From a virus, in the IMG/VR virus record IMGVR_UViG_3300045988_117710: a stretch of 64,000 bases of DNA; one strand, 5' to 3'. Position 1 is the stretch's first letter, and each line of letters opens with the position of its first letter. Shown here in pieces: positions 13,105-63,270 of the stretch. The position numbers and the translations under genes were made by a program. A model generated the notes under the pieces. It ran no database searches, was not told where the DNA came from, and saw nothing but the letters and a program-made list of their open reading frames with translations.

Positions 13105-14499
13105 ATGTTAAAAACTAATCTTAACGAAAGTACTTTAATTAAAAAATATTCTCCAATTTTAGAATCAGTTGAAACTGGTTTAAAGAACTTAGGAAGAGAT
13201 GTTGCTGAATTCGATTCTTATAAGAAATATACTTTATCAAGAATCATGGAAAATGCTCAAAACTTAATTGAAACTTATTCAAAAAATAAGGCAATTATGG
13301 AAGCTGGTACTTTCCAAGTAAACAATGTTCCTGCTAAAAACCAATACTTAAAATTAACTGCTGCTGTTTATCCACAATTAGTAGCTGAAAATGTTGCTTC
13401 TGTTCAAGCAATGGAATATAAAGATGCAACTTGCTACTATTTAGGATATACTTATGGAGACAACAGAGGAGAAATCAAAGCTGGTGATTCTATAAGTACA
13501 GTATTCCAAGTTGGCCCAGATTCTGACAAATATGCTGCTTCTACAAGATATGCTTCTGAAGCTATCTCTCAAGAAGAATTAGTTGTTGAAGCTGGTGAAG
13601 CAAAACTTGCTTGGGGACCAGTTATTCCTGGATCAGTTGCTATCGATATTGATGGTACTGGTGCTACAATCGTAACTGATGACGGTTTAGGTGCATTATC
13701 TGACGGTGGTGCTATTGATTATGCTACTGGTACAATTACTGGTGCTACAATCGTTGAAGGTGCTAAAGCTGATTACAAACAAAATCTAGAATATGCCCCT
13801 GCTCAATTACCATCTGTTAGCTTAGATATTAAACCTTTATTCTTACATGCTAAACCTAAAGCATTAAGAACTGCTTATAGCTTAATTGGTGCATTCGATT
13901 TACAACAAACTCAAGGTTTAGATGCACAAAAATTATTAAGCAACTTAGCTACTGACGAATTAAGATGTGAAATCGATGGAGAAATCTTAAATGATATAGC
14001 TTCATTACCTGCTTCTGCTGCAGCTGGTGTAGTTACATGGAATATGGAAGTTCCATTTGGTATCAATAAGAAAGAACATTATGAAAGCTTATACTTCAAA
14101 ATTATTGAAGCTGGTTCAATCATCAAACAAGTTACTCGTAAATACGAAGGTAACAGAGTTATCGCTGGATTCAACGCTAACTATGTATTAAAAACTTTAG
14201 ATGAATTCAAAGCTGCTTCAACAAGAAATAGTGTAGGTCCTGTTGTTTCTGGTACTTTAGCTGGTGACTATACAGTTATCTATAACCCATATATTGGTGA
14301 AGATGATTTCACAGTATTATATCAAGGTCAAACATTTGACACAGCTTATATCTATGGTGTTTATATGCCTATCGTTTCTAGCCAATTCATTATGGATGAT
14401 ACTTTACTAGGACGTCAAGGATATGCTACAGAATACGCTAAATCATTTGTTAACCGTAAATATGTAGTTAAAGGTAAAATTACTCACAACGTTGCTTAA
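13105..14499 (+). CDS. putative major capsid (or major tail) protein
   Basis: 464 aa. Codon usage differs from neighbours (AAA/GAA/CAA/GCT-rich), consistent with high expression. Followed by a perfect 10-bp terminator. Confidence 0.4.
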   Translation: MLKTNLNESTLIKKYSPILESVETGLKNLGRDVAEFDSYKKYTLSRIMENAQNLIETYSKNKAIMEAGTFQVNNVPAKNQYLKLTAAVYPQLVAENVASVQAMEYKDATCYYLGYTYGDNRGEIKAGDSISTVFQVGPDSDKYAASTRYASEAISQEELVVEAGEAKLAWGPVIPGSVAIDIDGTGATIVTDDGLGALSDGGAIDYATGTITGATIVEGAKADYKQNLEYAPAQLPSVSLDIKPLFLHAKPKALRTAYSLIGAFDLQQTQGLDAQKLLSNLATDELRCEIDGEILNDIASLPASAAAGVVTWNMEVPFGINKKEHYESLYFKIIEAGSIIKQVTRKYEGNRVIAGFNANYVLKTLDEFKAASTRNSVGPVVSGTLAGDYTVIYNPYIGEDDFTVLYQGQTFDTAYIYGVYMPIVSSQFIMDDTLLGRQGYATEYAKSFVNRKYVVKGKITHNVA

Positions 14500-21167: not shown

Positions 21168-21200
21168 AAGTCAACAATATTGTTGACTTTTTCTTTTGTT
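21168..21200 (+). terminator. intrinsic terminator overlapping a downstream -35
   Basis: 9-bp stem AAGTCAACA/TGTTGACTT plus a T-tract. Confidence 0.7.
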
Positions 21201-21211
21201 TATCGTATAAT
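21183..21211 (+). promoter_or_regulatory. consensus sigma-A-type promoter TTGACT-N17-TATAAT for the PARP-like gene
   Basis: -35 at 21183-21188 lies in the 3' arm of the terminator hairpin. -10 at 21206-21211, preceded by CG. Confidence 0.65.
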
Positions 21212-21236
21212 AGAGACAATGAAAGAGGTAATGTTT

Positions 21237-22496
21237 ATGAAATTTGCAAAGTTAATTATGATTACTGAAGACAATCACAATAAAGAGTATATAATGACTC
21301 AGATTGATTCTTCAACATTTAAAGCTGAATGGGGTAGGGTTGGTTCTAGTTATCAATCAACTACTTATTCTATGTATGAGTGGGATAGTAAGTACAAATC
21401 TAAAGTTAAGAAAGGTTATAAGGATATATCAAATCTAGTTGAGAAGGTTACTGTAGATGGTGATGTTAAGACTTTACCTTATGACTATATTACTAATAAG
21501 TCTGTCAAGGATATTCTTAATAGATTGTATCAATATACTGATTCTTACTTAAAGGAAAACTACTTAGTTAATACTGTAGATGTTTCCAAAGCACAAATTG
21601 ATGAAGCTTATAAGATTATTGATGAGCTTGAAAGATTAGCTTATTCAAGACATTTAGATGTTCGTGAAGTTAATAGAAATTTAATTAAGTTATTTGAAAC
21701 AATTCCAAGACGTATGTCTAGAGTTAAAGATTATTTATGTGATGATTCTATTACTAAAGATAAGGTTGATGAAAAGATTCGTGCTGAGTTAGATATGCTT
21801 AAGACTATGTCAGATGCTGTTGAGTTAAGACTTAAGAAACAAGCTGCAAGTAAGAAGACTACTAAGGTTGAGAAGTTATCTGAATCTGAACAAAAGGATA
21901 AATTACTTGCTGATCTTGGATTAGTTGTAGAGGATGTAACTGATGAGGATATTAAGTTTATTAAGAAACAATTAGGTGAAAGTTCACACTTATTTAAGAA
22001 AGCTTGGAAGATTACTAATCCTGCTACTGAAAAGAGATTTAATGATTTAGTTGCTACTGATGATTTCAAAGGTAAGGAAGTTAAATATTATTGGCATGGT
22101 TCTAGAAATCAAAACTGGTATAATATTATTCAAACAGGATTAACTGCTAATCCTAAGGGTGTTAAGATTACTGGTAAGATGTTTGGTTATGGTATCTATT
22201 TTGCACCTAAAGCAAAGAAGAGTGTTAACTATACTTCTCTTGAAGGTTCTTATTGGGCAAGTGGTAATGATAAGAGTGGGTTCATGGCTTTATTCGAAGT
22301 TGCTATGGGTAATGTGTTAGATGTTTATGATCATCATTACTGGTGTTCAAGAACTAACAAAGAAGAGATGTGGAAACATAACAAGTGTCATACTTTATAT
22401 GCTCACGAAGGTAGAGGTTTCTTATACAATGATGAAGTTATTGCATATGATGATGCACAAGTTAATATTAAATATATAGTGGAGTTGAGTAGATAA
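21237..22496 (+). CDS. PARP-like ADP-ribosyltransferase (WGR domain plus PARP catalytic domain)
   Basis: WGRVGS motif near the N-terminus. C-terminus YWHGSRNQNW..TGKMFGYGIYFAPKAKKSVNY...LYNDEVIAYDDAQVNIKYIVEL is near-collinear with the PARP1 catalytic signature including the H-Y-E residues. Real ATG at 21237 (AAAGAGG RBS); the track ORF runs upstream through the promoter. Confidence 0.75.
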   Translation: MKFAKLIMITEDNHNKEYIMTQIDSSTFKAEWGRVGSSYQSTTYSMYEWDSKYKSKVKKGYKDISNLVEKVTVDGDVKTLPYDYITNKSVKDILNRLYQYTDSYLKENYLVNTVDVSKAQIDEAYKIIDELERLAYSRHLDVREVNRNLIKLFETIPRRMSRVKDYLCDDSITKDKVDEKIRAELDMLKTMSDAVELRLKKQAASKKTTKVEKLSESEQKDKLLADLGLVVEDVTDEDIKFIKKQLGESSHLFKKAWKITNPATEKRFNDLVATDDFKGKEVKYYWHGSRNQNWYNIIQTGLTANPKGVKITGKMFGYGIYFAPKAKKSVNYTSLEGSYWASGNDKSGFMALFEVAMGNVLDVYDHHYWCSRTNKEEMWKHNKCHTLYAHEGRGFLYNDEVIAYDDAQVNIKYIVELSR

Positions 22497-27658: not shown

Positions 27659-28606
27659 ATGGAACAAGAGATATTAAAAGAGTTAGGTGGTAAGTTGAAA
27701 TATCTTATTCGTAAGAAGAAATCATTTCAAGATATTTGTGAAGCTACTGGTCTTAAAGATTATGAGCTTTATGGTGTTGTTCAATTGCTTAAGCAACAAG
27801 GTGAACTTATTGATGTTGTTAATGGTGAGCTAGTTATTCTTAAAACTCCACCTAAGACTTCAGACATTTATACAGTCCCTACTATTTCTGAACATCTTAA
27901 GTTGTTGTTAATTAGTGATACTCATCTATGTAATAAATCTGATAGACTTGATATTCTTCGTTATCTATATGATAAGGCAGAGAAACAAGGTGTTAAGCAT
28001 GTTCTTCATTCTGGAGATTTTACTGATGGTTTATCTAATCGTCCTGAACAGATTTATGAACTTAAAGAACCATCTTATGAAGGTCAAGTTCAATATTGTG
28101 TAGATAAATATCCTAGGTTTAGTGGTAAGACTTATGTTATTCAAGGTAATCATGATGATTGGTGGTTTAAGAGATGTGGTTCAGAGATTGTTAAGGCAAT
28201 TGCTCAACAGAGAGATGATATTGTTTATCTAGGAGCTGATGTTGCTGATCTTCATATTGGTAAGCTTAAGTGTAGATTATTTCATGGTTCTGGCGGCTCT
28301 TCTTATGCAGTGTCTTATAAGATTCAGAAGTATTTAGATTCTATTCCTTTAGAAGAACGTCCTGATATTCTTCAAACAGGACATATTCATCGTGCTTTCT
28401 ATATGCATAATGTATCTACTCATTGTTTTCAAACAGCTTCTTTAGAAGATCCAACTCCATATAGTCGTTCTATGGGATTCCCTAATGATTTATCTTGTTG
28501 GTGGGTTGATGTTGATTTTGATAACAAGGGTAATCCTGTTATGATTCAACCTCAATTAGAAACTTTCCCTACTAAGAGATTAGTTAAATCTCGTTATAAG
28601 GGATAA
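27659..28606 (+). CDS. calcineurin-like metallophosphoesterase (SbcD/Mre11-like?) with an N-terminal wHTH-like region
   Basis: Motifs LISDTHL, HSGDFTDG and QGNHD. Confidence 0.55.
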   Translation: MEQEILKELGGKLKYLIRKKKSFQDICEATGLKDYELYGVVQLLKQQGELIDVVNGELVILKTPPKTSDIYTVPTISEHLKLLLISDTHLCNKSDRLDILRYLYDKAEKQGVKHVLHSGDFTDGLSNRPEQIYELKEPSYEGQVQYCVDKYPRFSGKTYVIQGNHDDWWFKRCGSEIVKAIAQQRDDIVYLGADVADLHIGKLKCRLFHGSGGSSYAVSYKIQKYLDSIPLEERPDILQTGHIHRAFYMHNVSTHCFQTASLEDPTPYSRSMGFPNDLSCWWVDVDFDNKGNPVMIQPQLETFPTKRLVKSRYKG

Positions 28607-29302: not shown

Positions 29303-30979
29303 ATGGAATTTAATTTTGATTTATTAGATTTGTCTGTTCCTGCTTTTACTCTTAAGAAAGAGCAAGTAGATGCAATTAGGTTTTGTTTAGAAAGACCTAA
29401 TGCAGTCATGTCTTTACAGACTGGTTTAGGTAAGACTTGTTCTTCTATTGTTGTTGCAAGAGAGTTGATGAAGCAGTTTAGTAACTTACCATTGCTTAGT
29501 ATATTTATAGTTCCTAATGAAGCTCTTAAAGCTTTCAAGAAGGAGTTTAAGATGATGGGTATTTCTCATTCTACTTGGGAGAGTTCGAAGAAGACCCCAA
29601 GTAAGGGTGCAAGAGTTTTACTTATTACTCATACAGCATTAGTTAAGTATTTTGATGAGGTTCAAACTACTGTTAGAAGATTTAATTGTTTGGCTGTTGT
29701 TGACGAGATTCATAAGTTTAGTAATACAGCAAAGATGACTCAGTCTTTAGCAAAGTTACGCCCTTATTTCAAAAGGTTTTATGGTCTTACTGCTACGACA
29801 GTTAGAAATGATCCTATGTCTTTACATACAATTTGTAATTTGGTTAGACCTGGTTCTTTAGGTACTGAGGTTCAGTTTAAGACAAGATTCTGTACTACAA
29901 AGAAGAAGATGTTTAAGTATACAACCAAGACAGGTTATAAAGGTCAGAAGGAAGTTGTTGAGGTTACAGGATTTAATCCTGATACTCTAGATCAACTTAA
30001 TGCAATTACTGATGATATCATTATCACTCGTAAGCTTGAGTATAATTTAATGCTTCATAGTATTGATATTCCTTTAGAGAATGAAGTTTGGATGAATTAT
30101 AAGAGAGCTGGTGTTGGGGTTCGTCCTGTTAAGACTAAGACTGTTGAGAAGAAGGTTAAGGATTTGACTACTGGTTTGGATAAGATTACTTATGTTGAGG
30201 TTGAGGATAAGGATTCTTTAGCTTCTTGGGCTGTGAAGTTAATTGATTTACAGAAGTGTTTGGATAATTCTTCAGAGTTTTTTCCACAACTCCCATTTAC
30301 TAATAAGGAGCAGTATTTTCTTAATTGGGTGAAGAGGTTGTTTGATGAAGGACATATTCCTATTGTGTATTGTTTCTATTTAGATACGATTGAACGAATC
30401 AAGAGTTTATTATGGAGATATAAGGATCAGCTTCAACTTGAGGATGTATTTGTTATCTCTGGTCAAGTTGAGAAGAAGGAGAGAGCAAAGATTGAGGATA
30501 AGATTGCACCTAGAACGGTTACTATTATTAATCGTGCTGGTACTGTTTCTATTAATCTTCAGAAGGCAGATACTCTTATATTTTATAATATTCCATGGGC
30601 AATTGATGAGTATTTACAAGCAGTTGGTCGTATAACAAGAACTGATACGAAGTTTGATAGTCAACATATTTACTTTCTAGAGTATGAGGGTACTATTGAT
30701 AATTATCGTGTTATTAAGATTAAGAATCATCTTAATGCTGTTGAGCAGATTCAAGGAGATCAGTTAACAAGTTCTGATGGTATTAATTTATCTGCTAATG
30801 GTATGAGGGATGTTAAGAAGTTACTTCTTTGGTGCTTTAAGCAAGATAATCCTGTTACTAAGGATGAGTTACTTGCTAAGATTAGTTCCAAGAAATCAAA
30901 GAAGAGTAAGAAGGTAGAAATTTCTGATGAGAAGAAAGAGATTTTAAATGATATACTAGGAACTGGCAAGGATTCCTAG
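29303..30979 (+). CDS. SF2 DExH-box helicase
   Basis: Motif I GLGKT, motif II VVDEIH, motif III LTATT, motif VI QAVGRITR. AGGAGG RBS. Confidence 0.7.
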   Translation: MEFNFDLLDLSVPAFTLKKEQVDAIRFCLERPNAVMSLQTGLGKTCSSIVVARELMKQFSNLPLLSIFIVPNEALKAFKKEFKMMGISHSTWESSKKTPSKGARVLLITHTALVKYFDEVQTTVRRFNCLAVVDEIHKFSNTAKMTQSLAKLRPYFKRFYGLTATTVRNDPMSLHTICNLVRPGSLGTEVQFKTRFCTTKKKMFKYTTKTGYKGQKEVVEVTGFNPDTLDQLNAITDDIIITRKLEYNLMLHSIDIPLENEVWMNYKRAGVGVRPVKTKTVEKKVKDLTTGLDKITYVEVEDKDSLASWAVKLIDLQKCLDNSSEFFPQLPFTNKEQYFLNWVKRLFDEGHIPIVYCFYLDTIERIKSLLWRYKDQLQLEDVFVISGQVEKKERAKIEDKIAPRTVTIINRAGTVSINLQKADTLIFYNIPWAIDEYLQAVGRITRTDTKFDSQHIYFLEYEGTIDNYRVIKIKNHLNAVEQIQGDQLTSSDGINLSANGMRDVKKLLLWCFKQDNPVTKDELLAKISSKKSKKSKKVEISDEKKEILNDILGTGKDS

Positions 30980-30991
30980 TATTCGTATAAT
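30978..30991 (+). promoter_or_regulatory. promoter, AGTATTCGTATAAT
   Basis: -10 at 30986-30991. Confidence 0.45.
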
Positions 30992-31018: not shown

Positions 31019-31351
31019 ATGATTAGGAGACATGATTTAGATAAGTTAACTAATCTTCTTGAAGGAATTCAGAAGGAAGGAATTAAGATTAATCGTGATG
31101 ATGAGCTCTCTAAAGTATTAACTGATATCAAAGGTTTAAGAACAGCAATTTATTTACAGACTTGTTCTGGTTTAGGGTATTTAGTTGATGGTACTTTTTA
31201 TAAGAGTGAAGAAGATATGATTAATATATTAGAAGGTTTTGATGGTGATATCGATGACTTGGCCACGAAGTTTGGTAGTGTTCAAACCTTTATTAGTACT
31301 GATTACTTATTAGAGTGGTTAGGAAGAATTATAGATGAGAACTTTAAATAG
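31019..31351 (+). CDS. hypothetical protein
   Basis: GAGGAG RBS, promoter at 30986-30991. Confidence 0.55.
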   Translation: MIRRHDLDKLTNLLEGIQKEGIKINRDDELSKVLTDIKGLRTAIYLQTCSGLGYLVDGTFYKSEEDMINILEGFDGDIDDLATKFGSVQTFISTDYLLEWLGRIIDENFK

Positions 31352-32222
31352 TGTTCTTGAAGAGTATCGTGGTAAGAAGGTTTTCTTAATAGATAACCTA
31401 TGGTATATGCATAAATGTTACAGTGTAATGTCTGATTTTCAGAATGCTGATGGTTATAAGACTGGTCATTTATATGGAATGGCGAATTTGATTACTAATA
31501 TTACAACTAATTTTGAAGATGCTTTGATTCTTATTTGTGAGGATTGTGGTTCTTCTGATAGGAAGCAGTTGGATGAGAGTTATAAAGCAAACAGACATCA
31601 AATGTTTAGTTTTCATTCTCTATTTAGTTTCGAACGTAATTTATTTCAAGATGTTCCTAATGTGTTCTTTTGTTATTCTGAAGGGTTTGAAGCTGATGAT
31701 GTATTGTTTTCAGTAAGTAGGATTAAGGATTATGATAATGAGTTTATTATTTTCTCTGGAGATAATGATTTATTACAAGCTTTAGATGATTCTACTAAGA
31801 TTGTTAGGAAGATTGTTGGAGATAGATTTACAATAGAAATTAATCAGGGTGATGATTATTATAACAAGACTTATGAGTCACTTTTACCATCACAGATTCC
31901 TGTGTTTAGAGCAATTGTTGGTGATAAGTCTGATAACTTACAACCTATTATTTATAGGTTTCCTAGAAAGGTTGCTAAGTTGTTTGCAAAGAATTATGAT
32001 TCTCAATCCGATGATGGTGTTTCTGAACTTTCAGAGAAGGAAAGAAATTTATACAATCAAGTTCCTTTGTGTGATAGGTTTCATAACAATTTAGATATTA
32101 TGAGATTGAAGCCAGTTGATTGTTCTATTCGTGATAAAGATTATAAGTATACATCTAGAGATGTTGCAGGATATTTACAGTTATTTAAGTTTAGAGATTA
32201 TTTAATAAAGAGAGGGTGGTAA
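31335..32222 (+). CDS. 5'-3' exonuclease / flap endonuclease (T4 RNase H / FEN family)
   Basis: FEN-like motifs GHLYGMANLI, ADDVLFSV and FSGDNDLLQALDD. Confidence 0.65.
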   Translation: MRTLNSVLEEYRGKKVFLIDNLWYMHKCYSVMSDFQNADGYKTGHLYGMANLITNITTNFEDALILICEDCGSSDRKQLDESYKANRHQMFSFHSLFSFERNLFQDVPNVFFCYSEGFEADDVLFSVSRIKDYDNEFIIFSGDNDLLQALDDSTKIVRKIVGDRFTIEINQGDDYYNKTYESLLPSQIPVFRAIVGDKSDNLQPIIYRFPRKVAKLFAKNYDSQSDDGVSELSEKERNLYNQVPLCDRFHNNLDIMRLKPVDCSIRDKDYKYTSRDVAGYLQLFKFRDYLIKRGW

Positions 32223-32225
32223 GTA

Positions 32226-32417
32226 ATGGAATATACAGTTATTCTAAAAGATAAGACTTTGAGATATAACAATAAGAAAGATATAGCTACTTTCTTTGGT
32301 GTTTCTGAACAAACAGTGGAGTCTTGGTTGTTAGGTAAATGTAAACCTAAAAAGAAGTTTAATATTGTTCAAGTATATGTTGATGGTTTACTTATTTTAG
32401 ATTTCACTGGGAGGTAA
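32226..32417 (+). CDS. small HTH DNA-binding protein
   Basis: IATFFGVSEQTVESW helix-turn-helix. GAGGGTGG RBS. Confidence 0.5.
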   Translation: MEYTVILKDKTLRYNNKKDIATFFGVSEQTVESWLLGKCKPKKKFNIVQVYVDGLLILDFTGR

Positions 32418-32422
32418 GATTG

Positions 32423-32692
32423 ATGAGAGATGATGTTTTTAGAGTTTCTACAAGTACAGATCCAAGGAAGTTGGCTCAAGCTGTTATGAATAAGGTTCAG
32501 TTTAGTGTTAATACTCCTGTACTAAGTTGTTTGGGTGCAGGTGCAATTAACCAAGCTGTTAAAGCACTTTCTATTCTTATAGGTATGGGTTCTACAATTG
32601 GTTTAGATATTTATTTCAAATCTCACTTTGAGGTTAGAGAATTAGATGGCGAAGAGAAGACTTTTATAAACTTCAAAGTTTATAAGATATAA
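32423..32692 (+). CDS. SpoVS-like (stage V sporulation protein S family) protein
   Basis: RVSTSTDP..LGAGAINQAVKALSILIG..LDGEEKTFINFKV is collinear with B. subtilis SpoVS (KVSAKSSP..IGAGALNQAVKAVAIARG..IDGEERTAIKLIV). GGGAGG RBS. Confidence 0.7.
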   Translation: MRDDVFRVSTSTDPRKLAQAVMNKVQFSVNTPVLSCLGAGAINQAVKALSILIGMGSTIGLDIYFKSHFEVRELDGEEKTFINFKVYKI

Positions 32693-32858
32693 GTCTTCTT
32701 TTTATATATTAATTTAGAAGTAAAGAAGTATTTTATTGTAGTATGTTTGTATTATGGAGTAGAAGAATTTATAGTTACTTTTGATAGGTGATTTTATAAT
32801 GGTTGATTTTCAAGGTCCTTCTATTTCATTTTGTTTAAAGTGATTAGGAGGACTTTTT

Positions 32859-34829
32859 ATGTTTTTCACAATTAATGACATTATCACTGGGAAGAAATAT
32901 AATGTAAATGTTATGTGGATTACATCTATGAAGAATGGTGATGATTCACAGTCTGCTCCTAACTTTGAGTTATTGTTGTATCAAGGTGACGGAGGACGTC
33001 CTTTGGTAGAATCATATGCTTCAGCTGCTGAGAGAAAGGAACGTAGAGATACTATTGTTGAAGCAGGTTCATTTTTCGAACTTAATAGTATTCAATACAA
33101 TCTTGTTTGGGTTCAGTCTGTTGCAAAGGTAAATGCTGGTGATCCATTATATGATGGTAACTTAGCACAGAAACCTGCTGTTTCTATTACATTTGCTAAT
33201 GGTAGAACTATTTATGGTCAGTTTGATACTGAACAAGCAAGAGATGAGTTCTATGACTTATTAATGGAGTCAATGCTTAGTGGTGGTTTAGTTCAAAGAG
33301 ATACTTTTGATGATTTTCCTAAGAAGGGGAATCCTGGATGTGTTTATCTAGCGAAGGATACAGGTATTACTTACTATTGGGATAAGGTTCTTAAGCAGTA
33401 TGTAACAACTGGTTCTGGTGGTCGTAAAGGTGTCTATGAGGCAATTAATGATTTACCTACTACTCTTGGTCAAGTGGTTACAATTAATAAGTCAGATTTA
33501 AGAGAATTGGTTAAGCCAACAGTTGATTTCATGGAGACTTCTGATGTAATTGATGATGAAGGTACTCGTGGTGTTATTATTGCTAATAATGATACTACTG
33601 TAGATATATGTATTATACCAGACAAAACTATTGATTCATTTAAGCAAGTCGCTACTGAAGCTGATTTACCAGAAACTGGGAAGACTAACATATTATTATA
33701 TGTTCAAGATATAGATGAGTTTAGAATTTGGGATGATAATGTACCTGGTTGGGTAGATCCATTCCATCCTATTAGATTTGAGAGTGATATTACTCCAGAG
33801 ACTGCTAGAACTAATACTCTTTATATTGATGAGACAGAAGCAAGATATACATCTGACAATGTTGAGTGGAAGTATATTACTTCTGAAGCAAGACCTTATC
33901 AGAAGGGTACTACTTACTATAAGGGAATGTTAGTCTATAGAGACAATATTTTAACTAAGGCAACAGTTACATTTAAGTCTAATGCAACAGTTAGTAAGAA
34001 TACTGCAGAAGCATTTACTTATGACTTAGATAAAGGAAATCTAGAAGTAATAATTGATGCTTACACTAGAACTAATGTAATGTATGATTTGTCTGACCAA
34101 CTTGATGAAGATACTCAAGAGTTTAATTTACCTGCAGGAGTAACTCCAGAACGTTCTGTTCTAGTATTCTATGCTGGTCAGTTATTAATAGAGGGTGTCA
34201 ACTACATTATCGATTACACTAATCAGAAGTTAAGATTATTGTTCGAAGAGGATCCAGATTCATTAGAAGATAGACATCTGACAATGATTATTGGTAACAT
34301 TGAAGCACCGGCTGGTGTTAGAACTGTTACTGGTATTATTCCTGGATTGGTTGATAATACAGATCCATTTAATCCTGTCATTGGTCATGATGATACTAAG
34401 ATTGATAAGAGTATTGCTAATCGTCTTGTATCTAATACTGATGTTACAGAGGTAGATGGTGCTGTGGATATGACTTTCACTTATGCAGATACTGATGATG
34501 GTTCTATTTCTGCTAAGAAGGTTATATTCAAAACACCAAATGATAATATTAAGTTTAAGGTTAATAATGTAACACCTCAAATCAGAGAGATTGAAATTTC
34601 TGCATTTGGTGCTGCAGAGGTAACTGAACGAGCTATTACATTTGATGGTACTTCTAGGGAGTTTGATTTACCTATTAATGTTGATACTACTAGACCTTTA
34701 GTAGTTATGATTAATGGGTTAGCATTAACTTCTGGTGAAGATTACGACTATGTTATAGTCGGAAATAAGATTAAGTTTACATATGTGTTTGAGGTGGATT
34801 CAAATGCTGTAATAGTAAACTTTAAATAG
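32859..34829 (+). CDS. virion structural protein
   Basis: AGGAGG RBS, 656 aa. Confidence 0.5.
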   Translation: MFFTINDIITGKKYNVNVMWITSMKNGDDSQSAPNFELLLYQGDGGRPLVESYASAAERKERRDTIVEAGSFFELNSIQYNLVWVQSVAKVNAGDPLYDGNLAQKPAVSITFANGRTIYGQFDTEQARDEFYDLLMESMLSGGLVQRDTFDDFPKKGNPGCVYLAKDTGITYYWDKVLKQYVTTGSGGRKGVYEAINDLPTTLGQVVTINKSDLRELVKPTVDFMETSDVIDDEGTRGVIIANNDTTVDICIIPDKTIDSFKQVATEADLPETGKTNILLYVQDIDEFRIWDDNVPGWVDPFHPIRFESDITPETARTNTLYIDETEARYTSDNVEWKYITSEARPYQKGTTYYKGMLVYRDNILTKATVTFKSNATVSKNTAEAFTYDLDKGNLEVIIDAYTRTNVMYDLSDQLDEDTQEFNLPAGVTPERSVLVFYAGQLLIEGVNYIIDYTNQKLRLLFEEDPDSLEDRHLTMIIGNIEAPAGVRTVTGIIPGLVDNTDPFNPVIGHDDTKIDKSIANRLVSNTDVTEVDGAVDMTFTYADTDDGSISAKKVIFKTPNDNIKFKVNNVTPQIREIEISAFGAAEVTERAITFDGTSREFDLPINVDTTRPLVVMINGLALTSGEDYDYVIVGNKIKFTYVFEVDSNAVIVNFK

Positions 34830-38754: not shown

Positions 38755-40194
38755 ATGGTCACTATAGAAAGAGAAACATATTACACATTAGACGAAATTA
38801 ACTCATTGATTAGTAACGGTCAAGTTGCCGCTGCTAATCAATGGGAAGTTTACGAACTTTCTTATAATAGTGGTTTTAGTGTTGGTTGGAACCTGTGTAG
38901 AATGTTTGTCAATAAACATACTGGAGCAGTAACGGGTATTCTTGGAATGGAAGGAATGTCTGGAAGTTCTAATAATACTATATTGACTAATAGTAACCTA
39001 GGTATTCATGCAGATATGAAAATAAAATGGCCTGGATTACAAGTCTATACTACAACTACATCAGCAGCTTCTGCGGCTACTAAGAAAGCAGCTAGTCTGT
39101 TTAATATTAGAGTAGAAACAGATGGGACATTTATAGGTCAAGGTCATGGTTTTACTAGATCTGAGCTCGAGACACATATAGAGAATTTCTTCTATATAGG
39201 TTCTAAATATGGTAAGATTACAACTGAGGATGCTAAACCAATTTATCTTCCAGAAGGTACATTTTATAATAAAAATGCAGTTGACCTATTAACTGGTAAA
39301 GCTTGGTTTAAATATACGGTACCTTTAAACTCAGAAGCATACACAGATGACTCGAGTTTAACCTTTTATAAAAATCTATGGTCAGCTGAGTGTATAGTTC
39401 AATATGATTTAAAACCAGTTACAGCAAACACATATCCGAGTATAAGTGTTCCTAATAGATTCATGCCTTACTTAAATTTAACTTTATATCCAAAGATTAG
39501 ATACCTATCACCTGCTTCATCTAACACTCAAGCAAAAGAAAGATGCTATATAAGATTAGGTGGGAATGAGTTTTATCTAGGTGGTGTTCCTTCAGGTACA
39601 ACCAGAATTACAGGTTCTAACTTCTATATAGGAGTTGAAGAGGGAGCTATAGGATTAGATACAGAAACTGGAAAAGGTTTATGGAATAGAGATGCATCTG
39701 TTCAAGTACCTTCAGCTGAAAATACTGTTTTTGGTAATTTAAGAGATAACAACATTAGTCGTGTAGATATCACAGGAATGATTGTTAGTGGATATGTTAA
39801 AAGAGATGGATACCAATGTCATGTTATCAGATCGAGAACAGGAATGGTTAATTTTGCTGCAGCTATGAAAGTAAATAGTACAACATTAGCAGATCCATTA
39901 TTCAATAATTTCACAGCTGCTTGGAGACCAAGTTATAAATACAGGAGATCTACAATAACAGCATCTGGAGTACAAACAGTATATTTTGCTTCACCATCAT
40001 TTATGTCACTGGTAGTAGATACTACTCCTAGTCATAGATCGTATACAGCAAATATATGTTTAAGAACCAACCAAACTAGCGGTGGAGATGATGCGAAGAT
40101 AAAAGCACCGTCTTACGGTACTACTGGAAATATTTCACCAACTGTCGGTAATAATCTAATATGGCAAGGTTGGTATTTAGCAGATAATACATAG
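38755..40194 (+). CDS. virion structural protein
   Basis: GAGGAGG RBS, 479 aa. Confidence 0.5.
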   Translation: MVTIERETYYTLDEINSLISNGQVAAANQWEVYELSYNSGFSVGWNLCRMFVNKHTGAVTGILGMEGMSGSSNNTILTNSNLGIHADMKIKWPGLQVYTTTTSAASAATKKAASLFNIRVETDGTFIGQGHGFTRSELETHIENFFYIGSKYGKITTEDAKPIYLPEGTFYNKNAVDLLTGKAWFKYTVPLNSEAYTDDSSLTFYKNLWSAECIVQYDLKPVTANTYPSISVPNRFMPYLNLTLYPKIRYLSPASSNTQAKERCYIRLGGNEFYLGGVPSGTTRITGSNFYIGVEEGAIGLDTETGKGLWNRDASVQVPSAENTVFGNLRDNNISRVDITGMIVSGYVKRDGYQCHVIRSRTGMVNFAAAMKVNSTTLADPLFNNFTAAWRPSYKYRRSTITASGVQTVYFASPSFMSLVVDTTPSHRSYTANICLRTNQTSGGDDAKIKAPSYGTTGNISPTVGNNLIWQGWYLADNT

Positions 40195-45448: not shown

Positions 45449-45458
45449 GGTGGTTTTT

Positions 45459-46634
45459 ATGAAAGAGTTTGTTATTAAGAATGAACTTATGATGTTCATT
45501 GAGGAGCATGAGGATTGGAAGGTTCTATTAGCTTCTGATCCTTATAATCTAATTATTAAGGAAGATGAGGATTTTCCTAATGTTTATTTATTCAAGTATA
45601 ATATGTTAGAGTCTGATATGTATCAGAAGATTTCCCAAGAAGCGAGAGGTTTAATAGTTGAGGTTTCTGAAGTAGCTGGTAGACGTGTGACTAAGATGTT
45701 AGCACATTCTTTTGATAAGTTCTTTAACTATACTGAACCTCAAGGTGTTATGGTTCTAGAGAATTTCAATTGGGATAATTATAGTTTCCAAGAGAAGAGA
45801 GATGGATCTCTTATGAGATTGTGGTTCTATAAAGATAAGTGGGTTGTATCTAGTTCTGGTACTATTGATGCTCATAAAGCCAATATTCAGATTCCTAGTG
45901 TAGGTTATAATTCATTTGGTGATATGTTTGATGCTATTATTAAGAAGTATGATGTTGATTTTGATTCTTTAGATAAGGGGATAACTTATTCATTTGAGAT
46001 GACTTCACCAGACAATAAGATAGTAGTTGATTATGACTCTGATGAGCTTACTCTTATTGGTATGAGAGTTAACAAGTTGAATATGGAGCTTGATCCTATA
46101 TCTTTTAATCCATTTAAGGATATTAAGGTTGCTGAGAGATTTGAGTTTACTTCTCTTGATGATGCTTTATCTATTATTAATAATAGAACGAATTTTGAGG
46201 GCTTGGTTTTGGTTGATTCTAGTTTCAATCGTGTTAAGATTAAGACTGAGGAGTATTTAGCTTTAGCAAAGATGTCTGACATGGCAAGTTCTGATAGAGG
46301 TATCTTAAGGATGATTCTAGCTGGTACTATAGATGATGTTGCAAATCGATTACCACATTTACAACCACGAATTGATATCGTTAAGGGTTTTGTGGAATCA
46401 GAAATTACTAATATTAAGCAGTTGATTAGTACTGTTGATTTTACTCAAGATAGAAAGACAATTGCTCTATCAGTTAAGGATAGTCCTTATGCTAGGTTTG
46501 TATTTCCATTGATTTCTAATCCTGATCAGGATGTTATTGGAGCTTATTTTGTGTCTGATAACTTGGAGAAGATTTACAAATCTTATAAGGAAAGGTTCAA
46601 TTTAAGTGAAGAAACTGAAGAAGAAGTCATATAA
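45459..46634 (+). CDS. RNA ligase, T4 Rnl1 (RnlA)-like
   Basis: Nucleotidyltransferase motif I KRDGSL (T4 Rnl1 has KEDGSL). GAGGTGG RBS. Confidence 0.6.
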   Translation: MKEFVIKNELMMFIEEHEDWKVLLASDPYNLIIKEDEDFPNVYLFKYNMLESDMYQKISQEARGLIVEVSEVAGRRVTKMLAHSFDKFFNYTEPQGVMVLENFNWDNYSFQEKRDGSLMRLWFYKDKWVVSSSGTIDAHKANIQIPSVGYNSFGDMFDAIIKKYDVDFDSLDKGITYSFEMTSPDNKIVVDYDSDELTLIGMRVNKLNMELDPISFNPFKDIKVAERFEFTSLDDALSIINNRTNFEGLVLVDSSFNRVKIKTEEYLALAKMSDMASSDRGILRMILAGTIDDVANRLPHLQPRIDIVKGFVESEITNIKQLISTVDFTQDRKTIALSVKDSPYARFVFPLISNPDQDVIGAYFVSDNLEKIYKSYKERFNLSEETEEEVI

Positions 46635-46651
46635 TAGTTGACTTCTTTTTT
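46623..46651 (+). terminator. intrinsic terminator overlapping a downstream -35
   Basis: GAAGTCA/TGACTTC stem plus TTTTTT. Confidence 0.6.
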
Positions 46652-46666
46652 GTTTTATCGTATAAT
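46638..46666 (+). promoter_or_regulatory. consensus promoter TTGACT-N17-TATAAT
   Basis: -35 lies in the terminator 3' arm. The 24 nt from the -10 onward are identical to 21206-21229. Confidence 0.65.
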
Positions 46667-46691
46667 AGAGACAATGAAAGAGGTGAATGTT

Positions 46692-47408
46692 ATGAAAGAC
46701 ATGCTTATGAATGAGTATAGTGTTTCAAAACTATTTGTTAAGAATAGTCCAACAAGTAGAATTAACAGCAGAGCGGATTTTGGTTATAAGGAAGAACATG
46801 TATGGGACATTGAGAAGTACCTATCTGATGAAGAGAAGTTAGAAATTATTGATTACCATACTGATGGGTTAGGTTCTTATATTCTAGATCTTATTAGAAA
46901 CTATCAAGTTGTAAGAGAGAATCCAGAGGTTCTTAAGAGAACAACTTATGGAGGGTTTAATAAGAATTCATTATTGAAGTGGTTGAATACAGCTGATCCT
47001 AGAAATGTATGTTCTAGAATTCTAACTCGTAGTTATCCTACTTATTGGATGTTCAAGAAGGAGTTTAGATTAACTGAGGATTGTCCTACAACTGACTATG
47101 GTTATAGGTTCTTATATACAGACCAACCTGTTGTTAGACAATGGTTTCATGATTTACTTAATAAGTTAAATAAGGAAGAGACTGAATGGTTTTTATTAAA
47201 TGATGAACATGAGGTTAAGATAAATAAGGTTAAGGATTTAGCTGATATTGTAGGGACTGACAATTTAAATAATCGTAAGTTATCTGACCTAGTTTGGAAT
47301 AATAAACGTGATGGTTTTACTGATGAAGAGTTGGATCGTTACATAGAAGTTTTAAGTGATATTGTTAATTATATGAATGAGAAGAAAGCTCAACTTGAGT
47401 TAATATAG
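46692..47408 (+). CDS. hypothetical protein
   Basis: Consensus promoter at 46638-46666 and a 5'-UTR identical to that of the PARP-like gene. ATG at 46692; the track ORF is extended through the promoter. Confidence 0.55.
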   Translation: MKDMLMNEYSVSKLFVKNSPTSRINSRADFGYKEEHVWDIEKYLSDEEKLEIIDYHTDGLGSYILDLIRNYQVVRENPEVLKRTTYGGFNKNSLLKWLNTADPRNVCSRILTRSYPTYWMFKKEFRLTEDCPTTDYGYRFLYTDQPVVRQWFHDLLNKLNKEETEWFLLNDEHEVKINKVKDLADIVGTDNLNNRKLSDLVWNNKRDGFTDEELDRYIEVLSDIVNYMNEKKAQLELI

Positions 47409-47420
47409 GAGGTAATGTAT

Positions 47421-47678
47421 ATGTCAAAAGTAAGTTTTATGTTAGGAAGTAATTTAGTATTTCAAATATCAAAGAGTAATTATATGTCTGCTAATCAGAT
47501 TGTGGATTTCTTAATGGAGCAAGGTTGTTTCACTCTTAAGAAAGACAATGTTATGAAGTCACTTGATAATATGTTATATTATGGTCGTGAGATTACAGCT
47601 GGTGAGTATGATTGTTTAACTGGTAAGGTTACATTAACAATCTCTGATGAGGTTTGGGAGGATCCATATGGATGTTAG
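47421..47678 (+). CDS. hypothetical protein
   Basis: AGGAGG RBS. Confidence 0.5.
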   Translation: MSKVSFMLGSNLVFQISKSNYMSANQIVDFLMEQGCFTLKKDNVMKSLDNMLYYGREITAGEYDCLTGKVTLTISDEVWEDPYGC

Positions 47679-47877
47679 AAGTTATACGAAGGATTTATTA
47701 AGGGAGCTTGGTGCTAAGGGATATATGATTGTCCCTTGCACACAAGAAGAGCAAGAGGAGATATTTACAACTTTGAGGTCTAATGGTAGATGTGCAAGAG
47801 CTGGTTATATCTATAATAAGGAACATGAGAAGATATTCTTTGTTCTAACAAAGAAGAGAAATAAGGTTGGTGCTTAG
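47668..47877 (+). CDS. hypothetical protein
   Basis: GGGAGGA RBS, ATG at 47668. Confidence 0.45.
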   Translation: MDVRSYTKDLLRELGAKGYMIVPCTQEEQEEIFTTLRSNGRCARAGYIYNKEHEKIFFVLTKKRNKVGA

Positions 47878-47878
47878 T

Positions 47879-48370
47879 ATGATTAAGATTAAGTATGGTG
47901 ATTTGTTAGATGCAACGGAAGATGTAATCTGTCATCAATGTAATGTTCAAGGTATCTTTGGTGGAGGTTTAGCTGCTCAGATTGGTAAGAGATGGCCACA
48001 ATGTGCTTTCTCTACTGAAGGGTTCGCTGAAGTATTTGGTTCTGGTGTTCTAGGTATGGTTCATTATTGGAAGACTCCTGATGGTAGAACTGTTTGTAAT
48101 TGTTTTACTCAGAGGGAGGATTTCACTACTGATTATTGTTTTCTAGAGAAAGCTTTTACAGAGATTCTTACAATTTGTAAGGAGAGTAATCTTTCAGTAG
48201 CAGTACCATTTCAGTATGGTTGTGGTATAGCTCATGGTGATTGGAATCAGGTATTAGATATCTTTACTAGGTTATCTACTGATATTGGTGTTGATATTAA
48301 TGTTTATTATTTGAAGGGAAGTGTTCAAGATGCCTCTAATAGTGAAGGACAAATATTTGGAGAAGAATAG
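47879..48370 (+). CDS. macro-domain (ADP-ribose binding / hydrolase) protein
   Basis: YGDLLDATEDVICHQCNVQGIFGGGLAAQI matches the macro-domain core (GDIT..DAIVNAAN..GGGV). Confidence 0.6.
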   Translation: MIKIKYGDLLDATEDVICHQCNVQGIFGGGLAAQIGKRWPQCAFSTEGFAEVFGSGVLGMVHYWKTPDGRTVCNCFTQREDFTTDYCFLEKAFTEILTICKESNLSVAVPFQYGCGIAHGDWNQVLDIFTRLSTDIGVDINVYYLKGSVQDASNSEGQIFGEE

Positions 48371-48575
48371 TTGGGTTATAGGTGATTTACTAACTGCTAG
48401 AGAAATGATTGATGTTATTGTTAGAGATTTAGAATCTAATGGTAGAACTCATGTAGATTATGTTCTAGAGAAGTTAGAAAGAGCAGAGAATATTTTAAAT
48501 AATATTAATGGGTTATGTTTAAGAAATTCTAATAAAGGAGTGAAGAAAGATGAAGACACAAGTTCAAGTAATTAG
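48330..48575 (+). CDS. hypothetical protein
   Basis: GAAGGGA RBS then ATG at 48330. Confidence 0.4.
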   Translation: MPLIVKDKYLEKNSWVIGDLLTAREMIDVIVRDLESNGRTHVDYVLEKLERAENILNNINGLCLRNSNKGVKKDEDTSSSN

Positions 48576-48978
48576 GACCTATGATAGAAGTGTTTTTGAA
48601 AAACAACTATCTGAAGCTTATGCAAGTAAGGATGTAGTTAATGTTAATACTCATACCGAGTCTTATTTCAATGGAAGGGATTTAGTTATCTATTATATAG
48701 CAATTGTGTTCTATAAGGAGAATGTTGGTGAGATTGCTTTAGTGAATAGGTCTAAGTCAGATATTCTAGTTAGTAATTTAGGATTAAATTCTAGAGCTTA
48801 TGGTGTGTTGGTTAGACATAATAGACATATGACTCTTGGTGATCTTGTTGATTTAATAAGATCTGGTAGTATTTATAAGATGAAGAATATTGGTGGTACT
48901 ACTGTAACTCAAATTAAGGAGAGATTAGTTGAGTTAGGTTTAGTTAAGGAGGAGAGTTCAAATGGCAAAGATAGATGA
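48550..48978 (+). CDS. protein with an RNA polymerase alpha-subunit C-terminal-domain-like (HhH) fold
   Basis: LGLNSRAYGVL..GDLVDLIRSGSIYKMKNIGGTTVTQIKERLVELGL is collinear with the E. coli alpha-CTD ([45 protein letters not shown]). Confidence 0.5.
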   Translation: MKTQVQVIRTYDRSVFEKQLSEAYASKDVVNVNTHTESYFNGRDLVIYYIAIVFYKENVGEIALVNRSKSDILVSNLGLNSRAYGVLVRHNRHMTLGDLVDLIRSGSIYKMKNIGGTTVTQIKERLVELGLVKEESSNGKDR

Positions 48979-49135
48979 GCTTAGAGAGATAGCGAAAGCA
49001 TATTGTAAGAAGATGGGTTATAAGTTTATATTCGCTAATGAATATAAGTTTGGTTTCGAGGATAAGCAAGGTGGTTTATGGACTTTAACTTATTTTGAAT
49101 TAGAATCTAAGTTGAAGGAAATGAATAATCAATAA
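48962..49135 (+). CDS. small hypothetical protein (57 aa), not in the ORF track
   Basis: AGGAGAG RBS, clean ATG..TAA. Overlaps the end of the previous gene. Confidence 0.4.
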   Translation: MAKIDELREIAKAYCKKMGYKFIFANEYKFGFEDKQGGLWTLTYFELESKLKEMNNQ

Positions 49136-49145
49136 TATTGGGTAG

Positions 49146-49158
49146 GTTATTCGTATAT
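49146..49158 (+). promoter_or_regulatory. promoter variant, TTATTCGTATATTA
   Basis: -10 TATATT at 49153-49158, immediately followed by a hairpin. Confidence 0.4.
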
Positions 49159-49159
49159 T

Positions 49160-49243
49160 ACAATGACAATTCTTTAGTTGTCATTTGTATGTCACGAGTA
49201 ACCCCATACTCAGTGAATAGCACTCTATACGAGTGCTTTTTTC
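49160..49243 (+). promoter_or_regulatory. structured 5' leader with a possible attenuator upstream of 49267
   Basis: Hairpin AATGACAA/TTGTCATT at 49162-49185, then the terminator hairpin at 49219-49243, both lying between the promoter and the RBS. Confidence 0.35.
49219..49243 (+). terminator. terminator or attenuator hairpin inside the leader of the phosphoesterase-ligase gene
   Basis: AGCACTC/GAGTGCT stem plus TTTTTT, 25 nt before the ATG at 49267. Confidence 0.6.
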
Positions 49244-49266
49244 GTATTTAAATTAAGGAGGTACCT

Positions 49267-50934
49267 ATGGTTAATGTTTTCTTTATTAGTGATTTACATC
49301 TTAATCATGGCAATATTATTGATTATTGTGATCGTCAGTTTAATAGTATTCAGGAGATGAATGATACTATTGTTAGGAATTGGAATAGTGTTGTAGGTCC
49401 AGATGATATAGTTTATTTTCTAGGTGATTTTGCTTTAGGTAGAGATGTAGATAAGGTTTATGAGGAGTATTCGAAGCTTCTGAATGGCACTATCTATTTC
49501 TTAAGAGGAAATCATGATAAGTCTAGATCTGTTGTATCTAGGTATTTTAATTTAATCGATACAGGTACGACTGTTTCTTATAATGATTCTCATTTCATTC
49601 TTTCCCATCATCCTTTATATGATTCAGAGATTCCTAAGGGATATGTTAATCTTCATGGTCATATTCACAATAACAAGTTGAGTAGGGTTTATGATTCTGG
49701 ATGTCATTTTAATGTTTCTGCTGATGTTACTGATTTCACACCATATTTCGTAAAGAATATTATAGATGATATTTCCTCTGGTTCTTTAGTTCCAAAGAGA
49801 ACTGGGGTTGATAGAGTTAGGAAGGATGATGGTAGTATGAGAAAGTTAGCTACAGTGCAAACTATTTTAAATGTTGAACCTATACCTGATGCTGATGCAA
49901 TTGAGGTTGTTACAGTTAAGGGTTGGAAGGTTGTTGTAAAGAAGGGTGAGTATCAAGTTGGTGATAAGGTAGTTTATTTCGAAATTGATTCACTTATTCC
50001 AAGAAGTTCAATAACAGAGTTTTTGATGGAAGATGAGTATATGTTGTCTGCTAGATTAAGAACTAGAAAATTAAGAGGTCAAGTATCTCAAGGTTTAGTT
50101 ATTTCTTTAGAAGATTCTCTTGTTATGGCTGAAGAGTTAAATGGTGCTGTTGAGTTATTTGATACTGATGATGGTACAGATGTTTCTGATTTACTTCATG
50201 TTGAGAAGTATGAACCACCTGTTACTTATGGTAACGAGGGTAGATGTGTTGCTTGGCCATTTACATTGACTAAAACTGATGAAGAGAGAATTCAAAATAT
50301 TCCTGAAGTTATTGATAAGTTGATCGAGAATGGAACTCATTTATGTATTTCAGTTAAGTTAGATGGTACTTCTATGACTGTAGTACATCAACCAGATGGT
50401 ATTCATGTAGCTGGTAGAAACAATGATTTTGATAAGACAGATGATTTTGCTTTCAATAATAAGTATTGGTCTACAGCTCGAAGATATGGTGTTACAGATG
50501 CTTTAGAAGAAGCCCATATAAATAATCCAGACAAATACTTTGCTGTTCAAGGTGAGTTAGTTGGTCCTGGTATTCAAGGTAATAAGATGAATTTATCAGA
50601 TTTGAATTATTATATCTTTAACTTATTTGTTTCTGAAGATGAATGCAGAACTTGGAAGAAGTTAGGTTATGAAGAATTAGTTCAGTTCTGTATTGATTAT
50701 GATCTTACTCATGTTCCTTATATTTATTCAGATTTCGAATTGAAGGCACATGGTTTAGTAGATGTTGATAGTATTCTTAAGTTTGCGGAAGGTACTTATA
50801 GAGATAATGCCGAGGGTTATTTCCCAAATGCTAAAGCCAATCAACAAAGAGAGGGGTTAGTGTTTAGAACTCTTGATCATCAATTCTCTTTTAAGGTTGT
50901 TAATAATATCTTCTTACTTAAGGGAGGAGAATAA
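49267..50934 (+). CDS. metallophosphoesterase fused to a nucleotidyltransferase-family (RNA/DNA) ligase domain
   Basis: N-terminal DLHLNHG, GDF and GNHD. C-terminal motif I KLDGTS. AAGGAGG RBS. Confidence 0.6.
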   Translation: MVNVFFISDLHLNHGNIIDYCDRQFNSIQEMNDTIVRNWNSVVGPDDIVYFLGDFALGRDVDKVYEEYSKLLNGTIYFLRGNHDKSRSVVSRYFNLIDTGTTVSYNDSHFILSHHPLYDSEIPKGYVNLHGHIHNNKLSRVYDSGCHFNVSADVTDFTPYFVKNIIDDISSGSLVPKRTGVDRVRKDDGSMRKLATVQTILNVEPIPDADAIEVVTVKGWKVVVKKGEYQVGDKVVYFEIDSLIPRSSITEFLMEDEYMLSARLRTRKLRGQVSQGLVISLEDSLVMAEELNGAVELFDTDDGTDVSDLLHVEKYEPPVTYGNEGRCVAWPFTLTKTDEERIQNIPEVIDKLIENGTHLCISVKLDGTSMTVVHQPDGIHVAGRNNDFDKTDDFAFNNKYWSTARRYGVTDALEEAHINNPDKYFAVQGELVGPGIQGNKMNLSDLNYYIFNLFVSEDECRTWKKLGYEELVQFCIDYDLTHVPYIYSDFELKAHGLVDVDSILKFAEGTYRDNAEGYFPNAKANQQREGLVFRTLDHQFSFKVVNNIFLLKGGE

Positions 50935-50935
50935 T

Positions 50936-52220: not shown

Positions 52221-52221
52221 G

Positions 52222-52247
52222 GGAAAGTTTAGTTGACTTTCCTTTTT
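52222..52247 (+). terminator. intrinsic terminator after nrdG
   Basis: GGAAAGT/ACTTTCC stem plus TTTTT. The loop and 3' arm contain TTGACT. Confidence 0.6.
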
Positions 52248-52261
52248 ATTTATCGTATTAT
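52233..52261 (+). promoter_or_regulatory. promoter TTGACT-N17-TATTAT(AAT)
   Basis: -35 lies in the terminator loop/3' arm. Confidence 0.6.
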
Positions 52262-52279
52262 AATATAGAGGTGAATGGT

Positions 52280-63243: not shown

Positions 63244-63250
63244 TGTAAAT

Positions 63251-63264
63251 ATACTTCGTATATA
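63251..63264 (+). promoter_or_regulatory. promoter, ATACTTCGTATAAT, driving an ORF-free transcript
   Basis: -10 at 63259-63264. Confidence 0.45.
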
Positions 63265-63270
63265 ATATTA

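Follow-up and report, generated by a model that had tools for sequence, protein, structure and literature searches.

SpoVS has been known for ~30 years by mutant phenotypes only, and virome papers often cite the gene as a "sporulation AMG" (auxiliary metabolic gene); as a viral AMG, spoVS has been reported in peat soil and in marine oxygen-minimum zones (PMC6172770, PMC8940887). The fold assignment of the family and the prediction that its members bind nucleic acid have been published (PMC2732212, PMC11621453), with an HHpred link between SpoVS and Alba that exceeds 90% (PMC11621453), and the family is present in the non-sporulating phyla Thermotogae, Deinococcus-Thermus, and Chloroflexi (PMC2732212). 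Here, we looked into a SpoVS-like gene of 89 amino acids (aa) carried by the virus record IMGVR_UViG_3300045988_117710, of which a stretch of 64,000 nucleotides (nt), hereafter the window, was analyzed. A first-pass annotation made from the sequence had called the gene a phage-encoded SpoVS homolog and had inferred from it that the host forms endospores and suggested that the phage manipulates sporulation. Our analysis bore out the homology and supported neither inference: the protein is a very divergent member of the family, and we tentatively read it as a nucleic-acid-binding factor of the phage itself.

The open reading frame (ORF), as read from the window sequence, lies at positions 32423 to 32692 on the plus strand, with an ATG start and a TAA stop, and the two peptides on which the homology had been proposed, LGAGAINQAVKALSILIG and LDGEEKTFINFKV, were both found in its product. 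The hidden Markov model check proposed at the same time gave a match to SpoVS (PF04232) that was full length and well above the Pfam gathering cutoff of 24 bits (E value = 1.3e-14, 54.1 bits, residues 4 to 86, profile positions 1 to 82 of 83). The protein also matched phrog_35646, "sporulation protein" (PHROGs, E value = 1.1e-8); an NCBIfam scan of the protein returned no match. The sole match among PDB sequences was the Thermus thermophilus SpoVS-related protein 2eh1/2ek0 (phmmer, E value = 2.3e-7). By BLASTP, the identity was 41% to Clostridium perfringens SpoVS and 34% to Bacillus subtilis SpoVS, the B. subtilis sequence used agreeing with the consensus of the family. Like B. subtilis SpoVS and its Bacillota orthologs (PF04232, COG2359), which are 86 to 90 aa long, the window protein consists of a single domain with the GAGA(I/L)NQAVKA core and the G..E.T motif of the C-terminal strand; G38, A39, G40, A41, I42, N43, Q44, A45, K47, and A48 are common to 43 cellular homologs. 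These results indicate that the 89-aa protein is a true member of the SpoVS family, very divergent and yet with a likeness far beyond chance.

An AlphaFold2 model built from 54 homologs had a mean predicted local distance difference test score of 95.8 and the beta-alpha-beta-alpha-beta-beta topology that is also predicted for B. subtilis SpoVS and its orthologs. The top Foldseek match of this model was again 2eh1 (2eh1_A; template modeling [TM] score, 0.87; root mean square deviation, 1.5 Å; 86 columns). The T. thermophilus protein is thus the best match among solved structures by both sequence and structure, although it is a cellular protein with 30% identity to the phage one; because this protein, which has the only solved structure of the family, comes from the non-sporulating Thermus, the SpoVS fold is not tied to sporulation. 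Foldseek also returned B. subtilis SpoVS, as a chain in the integrative model 9a7h, and, next, Alba, Sso10b/Sso10b2, Mth10b, and Rpp20/25 at TM scores of 0.6 to 0.74 and a probability of 1.0. At the level of the fold, the model places the SpoVS-like protein within the Alba superfamily (Alba/IF3-C-like). It shares with archaeal Alba/Sso10b and with Rpp20/Rpp25 the fold class found by Foldseek, the small size, and the basic character, but it is only 12 to 20% identical to them, and sequence comparison does not identify it as Alba. Moreover, nucleic-acid binding has been demonstrated for Alba, whereas for SpoVS proteins it is predicted.

Next, we compared the window protein with cellular SpoVS in a joint alignment. 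Its identity to the cellular SpoVS proteins tested was 30 to 38% in all cases, for spore-formers and non-spore-formers alike, whereas the cellular proteins were 57 to 99% identical to one another across phyla. B. subtilis SpoVS, for instance, was 78% identical to that of C. perfringens, 80% identical to that of a Thermotoga metagenome-assembled genome, and 57% identical to that of Thermus; the Bacillus, Clostridium, and Thermotoga proteins were mutually 70 to 80% identical, compared with 31 to 38% (34 to 41% by BLASTP) between the phage protein and B. subtilis SpoVS with its orthologs. In a test of orthology to the B. subtilis-type spoVS, the window protein therefore lay far under the cellular range. 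A profile search returned a compact phage clade (P0001 to P0018; 130 to 174 bits, 45 to 99% identity), with bacterial SpoVS at 80 bits or less. When 1.84 billion cluster representatives were searched with phmmer, one 50%-identity cluster passed an E value of 1e-30 and six passed 1e-10, and an IMG/VR scan with the clade alignment found seven distant homologs only (30 to 42% identity) and no close relative. The phage clade and cellular SpoVS have 20 core positions in common, including GAGAINQA.KA, G54, G60, F69, G76, E78, and T80; at a further 13 positions, each group is conserved within itself and the two differ in residue. The clade is uniformly basic (isoelectric point [pI], 8.9 to 9.7). Upstream of the SpoVS-like gene we saw phage-type promoter motifs only, and not the sigma-H promoter of B. 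subtilis spoVS. Because of the gap between its identity to cellular SpoVS and the identities among the cellular proteins, the gene is not a recent copy from a host, nor is it a taxonomic pointer; judged by sequence, it represents an old, divergent subfamily of a phage lineage and no recent host capture.

To place this subfamily, we considered SpoVS homologs in other phages, which a Clostridium SpoVS query found in 15 of 50,697 phage records. Seven of the 15 were phages whose hosts make no endospores (Stenotrophomonas phage TS-12, five Streptomyces phages of the BRock group, including BRock gp51, and Bacteroides phage BS162P1); six were Bacillus or Lysinibacillus phages, among them the endospore-former phages LysYB1/2 (Lysinibacillus), BCD7 (Bacillus), and vB_BauM_KLEB27-3; and two, both human fecal phage contigs, had no host given. 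All the phage homologs tested scored above the Pfam threshold, BS162P1 (52 bits) similarly to the window protein, and some of the Bacillus/Lysinibacillus homologs were 68% identical to Clostridium SpoVS. No preference for phages of spore-formers was seen in these 15 records, a small sample. Since phages of hosts without endospores, as well as non-sporulating phyla, carry the family, a phage SpoVS homolog does not imply an endospore-forming host, and the annotation's conclusion about the host was not supported.

The annotated phage homologs (phrog_35646, BCD7, KLEB27-3, LysYB1/2, TS-12, BRock gp51, and BS162P1) resemble the window protein in being single-domain PF04232 proteins and are often encoded beside DNA-metabolism genes. 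The window clade differs from them as a separate subfamily: it is 29 to 34% identical to those that its query finds, is confined to uncultured phages of ~146 to 189 kb, and is fixed upstream of a tail-fiber operon. Phage-borne SpoVS homologs are thus already known from GenBank, PHROGs, and viromes, and the window protein is a new divergent member. The neighbors of the more distant homologs were recurrently genes of DNA metabolism: a flap endonuclease (FEN)-type exonuclease directly upstream in the distant relative L007, an HNH endonuclease and a uracil-DNA glycosylase in L009, a Sak4 annealase and a primase in L017, and in both L011 and L012 Que (7-deazaguanine) genes. The Streptomyces phage BRock homolog has a RuvC resolvase and a single-stranded DNA-binding protein as neighbors, and that of Bacteroides phage BS162P1 has an HNH endonuclease.

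Two observations on the family were made outside the window. The homolog of Stenotrophomonas phage TS-12 (L018, MW302330.1, 10909 to 11184) had 64% identity to Clostridium SpoVS and scored 129 bits against Pfam; compared with the window protein, it is much closer to a "cellular" SpoVS, and it forms an odd pairing with the recorded Gram-negative host. The search of cluster representatives also returned proteins that carry between 2 and 8 SpoVS-like stretches in tandem (P0121 to P0128), such as P0122 (426 aa, 4 stretches) and P0125 (3,329 aa, 8 stretches); to our knowledge, a tandem multidomain SpoVS architecture has not been described previously.

We tentatively propose, at somewhat less than an even chance, that the SpoVS-like protein, which is small and basic, binds nucleic acid as an accessory factor for the phage's own DNA/RNA transactions, which would make it something other than a sporulation-specific effector. 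A nucleic-acid-binding role is the best supported because of the Alba fold, the glycine-rich loop and helix N terminus, the basic character, and the recurrence of DNA-metabolism neighbors in unrelated phages, including phages of non-sporulating hosts. The gene would be a long-standing resident of an uncultured ~180-kb T4-like myovirus lineage of human-associated metagenomes that probably infects Bacillota. By analogy with the Alba fold, its product would probably dimerize and would contact nucleic acid with the helix N terminus and the invariant, glycine-rich loop GAGAINQAVKA, and it may act as an architectural or regulatory accessory in replication, in recombination, or in the switch to late gene expression. 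The gene would be the last of a sigma-A-type (early- or middle-looking) unit with a FEN exonuclease and a small helix-turn-helix (HTH) protein, right before a late-type motif of the tail-fiber operon.

Several points weigh against this proposal. Neighborhood inference is weak for small phage genes; the L010 homolog lies between tail-tube and baseplate genes, and the Bacillus/Lysinibacillus phage homologs lie among small hypothetical genes. The best named cellular matches of the window protein are Clostridium SpoVS proteins, at ~40% identity, and a role in the host SpoVS pathway is conceivable because the host is probably a member of the Bacillota and may be a spore-former. In addition, the molecular role of SpoVS in B. 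subtilis is itself known by mutant phenotypes only (PMC2732212, PMC8510167).

The phage that carries the gene is a T4-like myovirus, an uncultured tailed phage of ~180 kb. Its window encodes a gp23-type major capsid protein (13105 to 14499) together with sheath and baseplate domains, and the identical 89-aa protein was found on contigs of 179 to 189 kb, which upheld the description of the gene as phage encoded. Further window genes encode tail-fiber domains, a poly(ADP-ribose) polymerase (PARP)-like protein, RNA ligases and a polynucleotide kinase, and a Tad3 homolog; every called gene is on the plus strand, and the GC content is 30 to 35%. Within the metagenome collection, 42 blocks contained the identical protein, and the copies retrieved differed from one another at 3 to 8 synonymous codons; these copies were picked by identical protein, and so only synonymous differences were visible and the counts are no independent test of selection (dN/dS). 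Relatives were found on metagenomic contigs of up to 189 kb, and the sample labels alone (e.g., ZEEV15 and HMPC12) suggest human-microbiome cohorts.

As for the host, a megablast search of the 6 kb around the gene against the 50,697 phage records gave no match, and the phage therefore has no close sequenced relative. Its closest capsid relatives (29 to 36% identity) are phages of Listeria, Bacillus, and Streptococcus, which include sporulating (Bacillus) and non-sporulating (Listeria and Streptococcus) Bacillota alike. A GGAG/GAGG core was present at −21 to −5 in 42 of 64 window genes, compared with 8.5% at random positions. Because of these capsid relatives and the strong use of Shine-Dalgarno sequences, the host is probably a member of the Bacillota. 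Scans of GTDB species genomes with the capsid protein and with an 824-aa tail protein found no relative, and a large protein search with the 824-aa tail protein returned metagenomic phage relatives only.

We then examined the neighborhood of the gene in the window. On the plus strand, the SpoVS-family (Alba-fold) coding sequence (32423 to 32692) closes a putative unit that begins with a 110-aa ORF (31019 to 31351) without a Pfam or PHROG match and continues with a FEN-type 5′-3′ exonuclease (31335 to 32222; PF02739, 5_3_exonuc_N, E value = 9.6e-21) and a 63-aa ORF (32226 to 32417) located 5 nt upstream of the SpoVS-like gene. The 63-aa ORF probably encodes an HTH protein (weak PHROG match to the N-terminal HTH of a small terminase subunit, E value = 2.5e-4; motif DIATFFGVSEQTVESWLLGK visible). 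The SpoVS-like gene has a GGAGG Shine-Dalgarno sequence at 32410 to 32414, 8 nt 5′ of its ATG, that falls within the 3′ end of the 63-aa ORF, an overlap that suggests translational coupling. Farther upstream of the putative unit lie genes for an SNF2 helicase and an SbcD-like metallophosphoesterase (27659 to 28606). Directly downstream, a 656-aa gene ("MFFTI...", 32859 to 34829, plus strand) opens the tail-fiber module and is followed by genes for two tail-like proteins (463 and 824 aa), of which the larger has a GDSL/SGNH domain and a tail-fiber PHROG match. The adjacency of the SpoVS-like gene to the 651/656-aa gene was kept in every relative examined, down to 57% identity, whereas the upstream side varied: the window and L023 have helicase-FEN there, and L008, L024, and L025 have a divergent PolA module. 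The 63-aa ORF was considered as a conserved partner and rejected: it is unlike the 64-aa ORF that precedes the L009 homolog, and it is absent in L007, L008, L024, and L025.

Two motif classes were overrepresented in the window. The motif TTTCGTATAAT (≤1 mismatch) occurred 17 times, versus 2.45 expected, with 16 sites on the plus strand (e.g., 8295, 8355, 22620, 28631, 29076, 30981, 42423, 60325, 61635, and 63681), most of them in gaps between genes; it often follows hairpin-plus-T-run terminators and resembles a sigma-A −10 element. The motif TTATATATTAWWTTAG (≤2 mismatches), which is AT rich and reminiscent of T4 late promoters, occurred 13 times, versus 2.6 expected, with 11 sites on the plus strand (e.g., 12054, 22531, 23726, 27513, 32702, 40516, and 57371), 10 of these just upstream of genes, and a looser copy was found upstream of the capsid gene. 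The two classes probably mark temporal classes of transcription, with TCGTATAAT motifs as putative early and TTATATATTA motifs as putative late promoters.

The SpoVS-like gene has no motif copy of its own. The nearest upstream candidate is a sigma-A-like promoter (CTGGCA-17 nt-TATAAT, containing TCGTATAAT; 30963 to 30991, plus strand), the putative promoter of the unit from 31019 to 32692. No intrinsic terminator was found after the gene. At 32702 to 32717 on the plus strand, 10 nt past the stop codon, lies a perfect copy of the second motif, TTATATATTAATTTAG, which by its likeness to late promoters may function as one; its position and core were kept in L023, L024, L025, L008, and L007. The signals upstream of the homologs themselves varied, with a TATAAT-type element in L008 and a TATATATTA core in L007 and L010. 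The leader between the SpoVS-like gene and the 656-aa gene was conserved in blocks well beyond the promoter motif and contains, on the plus strand, a hairpin (32812 to 32856; 5′ arm, 32812 to 32827; 3′ arm, 32841 to 32856) that would sequester the ribosome-binding site, since it covers the GGAGG (32847 to 32851) of the 656-aa gene, whose ATG is at 32859. The hairpin has a minimum free energy of −19.9 kcal/mol (z = −6.2 versus shuffles), and RNAalifold on six relatives supported 16 hairpin pairs, 5 of them with compensatory changes. This arrangement suggests translational control of the operon of the 656-aa gene; a link between the hairpin and the SpoVS-like protein is hypothetical.

These data bear on other possible roles of the protein. 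If it mimicked or antagonized host SpoVS, for example by forming heterodimers or competing for partners, then polar septation and spore maturation in a spore-forming Bacillota host could be slowed or prevented, or sigma-D/autolysin expression could change. We consider such an effect on sporulation rather unlikely, although the true family membership, the conserved core motif, the probable Bacillota host, and the occurrence of homologs in Bacillus and Lysinibacillus phages, some of them close to Clostridium SpoVS, are consistent with it. Moreover, Bacillus spoVS mutants are affected in septation timing, engulfment, and sigma-D- and sigma-K-dependent expression (PMC2732212, PMC8510167), SpoVS is confined to spore-formers within the Firmicutes (PMC2732212), and functional sporulation regulators do occur in phages (PMC10294663). 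The window protein, however, is as far from the SpoVS of non-sporulating phyla as from that of spore-formers, its homologs extend to Stenotrophomonas, Streptomyces, and Bacteroides phages, and its closest capsid relatives include phages of Listeria and Streptococcus. Neither the 64-kb window nor the ~8 kb downstream of it yielded a further sporulation-related Pfam family. In a survey of human-gut phages, 31 sporulation genes were enriched in the phages that infect spore-formers, and spoVS was not one of them (PMC10294663). The window gene resembles the phage sporulation regulators of that survey (sigF/sigG-like, Spo0A, SpoVT, and SpoVG; Schwartz et al. 2023) as a homolog of a gene named for a sporulation phenotype, but those genes are statistically overrepresented in spore-former phages, and the sigma factors among them have been shown to alter sporulation, whereas spoVS lies outside the set. 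The low identity, the lack of companion sporulation families, and the position of spoVS outside the enriched set thus left the claim of sporulation manipulation unsupported.

The conserved position of the gene raises the question of whether its product is a regulator or switch of the adjacent tail-fiber operon, binding the leader DNA or RNA (32693 to 32858) and licensing transcription or translation of the 656-aa gene. There is a parallel in lambda Q, which immediately precedes the late promoter that it acts on. The adjacency to the 651/656-aa gene is invariant despite a rearranged upstream side, the intergenic blocks and the strong hairpin over the Shine-Dalgarno sequence are conserved, and Alba-fold proteins bind both DNA and RNA (PMC11621453). 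We nevertheless judge a dedicated operon switch improbable: the adjacency may just reflect where rearrangement breakpoints fell, and the distant homologs (L009 to L012, L017, BRock, and BS162P1) do not adjoin the tail genes. Hairpins that sequester ribosome-binding sites are, besides, common in phage late mRNAs such as those of T4 and need no dedicated protein. Finally, the basic pI of the clade, the TATATATTA core directly upstream of the homologs in L007 and L010, and the location of these two homologs beside or inside structural modules would fit a late-expressed histone-like protein that condenses DNA and is packaged with it or attached to the virion. This seems highly improbable for the window gene, which lacks its own promoter of this class and runs in the same direction as replication genes, and whose product has a modest net charge of +2.

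The label "sporulation AMG" is unsafe for such genes, given that SpoVS-fold genes are also carried by phages whose hosts do not sporulate, and that in phages they usually sit with DNA-metabolism genes. A Pfam SpoVS match should not be taken as a sign that the host forms spores or that sporulation is hijacked. Nucleic-acid binding, if true of the phage protein, would inform the function of the bacterial SpoVS family, and the protein is small, easily expressed, and tractable. Were the protein instead a switch of the tail-fiber operon, this would be the first molecular mechanism for any SpoVS-family member and would suggest that bacterial SpoVS is an RNA/DNA-binding regulator of developmental gene expression.

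One feature of the neighborhood recalls a pairing in B. subtilis. The integrative model PDB 9a7h pairs B. subtilis SpoVS with YunD, which we take to be a metallophosphoesterase/5′-nucleotidase-type protein; the metallophosphoesterase gene at 27659 to 28606, whose product looks SbcD/Mre11-like, lies 4 kb upstream of the phage SpoVS-like gene, and in Lysinibacillus phage LysYB1 a "phosphoesterase" lies ~4 kb upstream of SpoVS. We found nothing usable in the literature on a link between YunD and SpoVS, and the proximity may be a coincidence.

Elsewhere in the window, a gene-free stretch of 248 nt (63244 to 63491) appears richer in G+C than its flanks and has several short stem-forming segments. 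Like the window as a whole, in which an Rfam scan gave no match and no tRNA genes were found, it has no Rfam match and no tRNA; it might be a noncoding RNA or an origin-like region. A 479-aa ORF without a family match (38755 to 40194) was present in most strains (L002 to L005) and absent in L001; it looks like a variable cassette that ends the tail-fiber module and may be linked to host range. A 161-aa ORF (60357 to 60842), assigned via the matching L026 gene, has the Pfam domain of Tad3, an anti-defense protein that inhibits type I Thoeris. RNA-repair-type genes cluster at 45450 to 54358 and 62440 to 63243 (two to three RNA ligases, a phosphoesterase-ligase fusion, a polynucleotide kinase [AAA_33/KTI12], a nucleotidyltransferase, and a NinI-like phosphatase), which suggests a countermeasure against tRNA/anticodon nucleases. 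The PARP-like gene lies at 21180 to 22496; its product has a PARP catalytic domain (ADP-ribosyltransferase-like) and matches phrog_23333 and PF00644.

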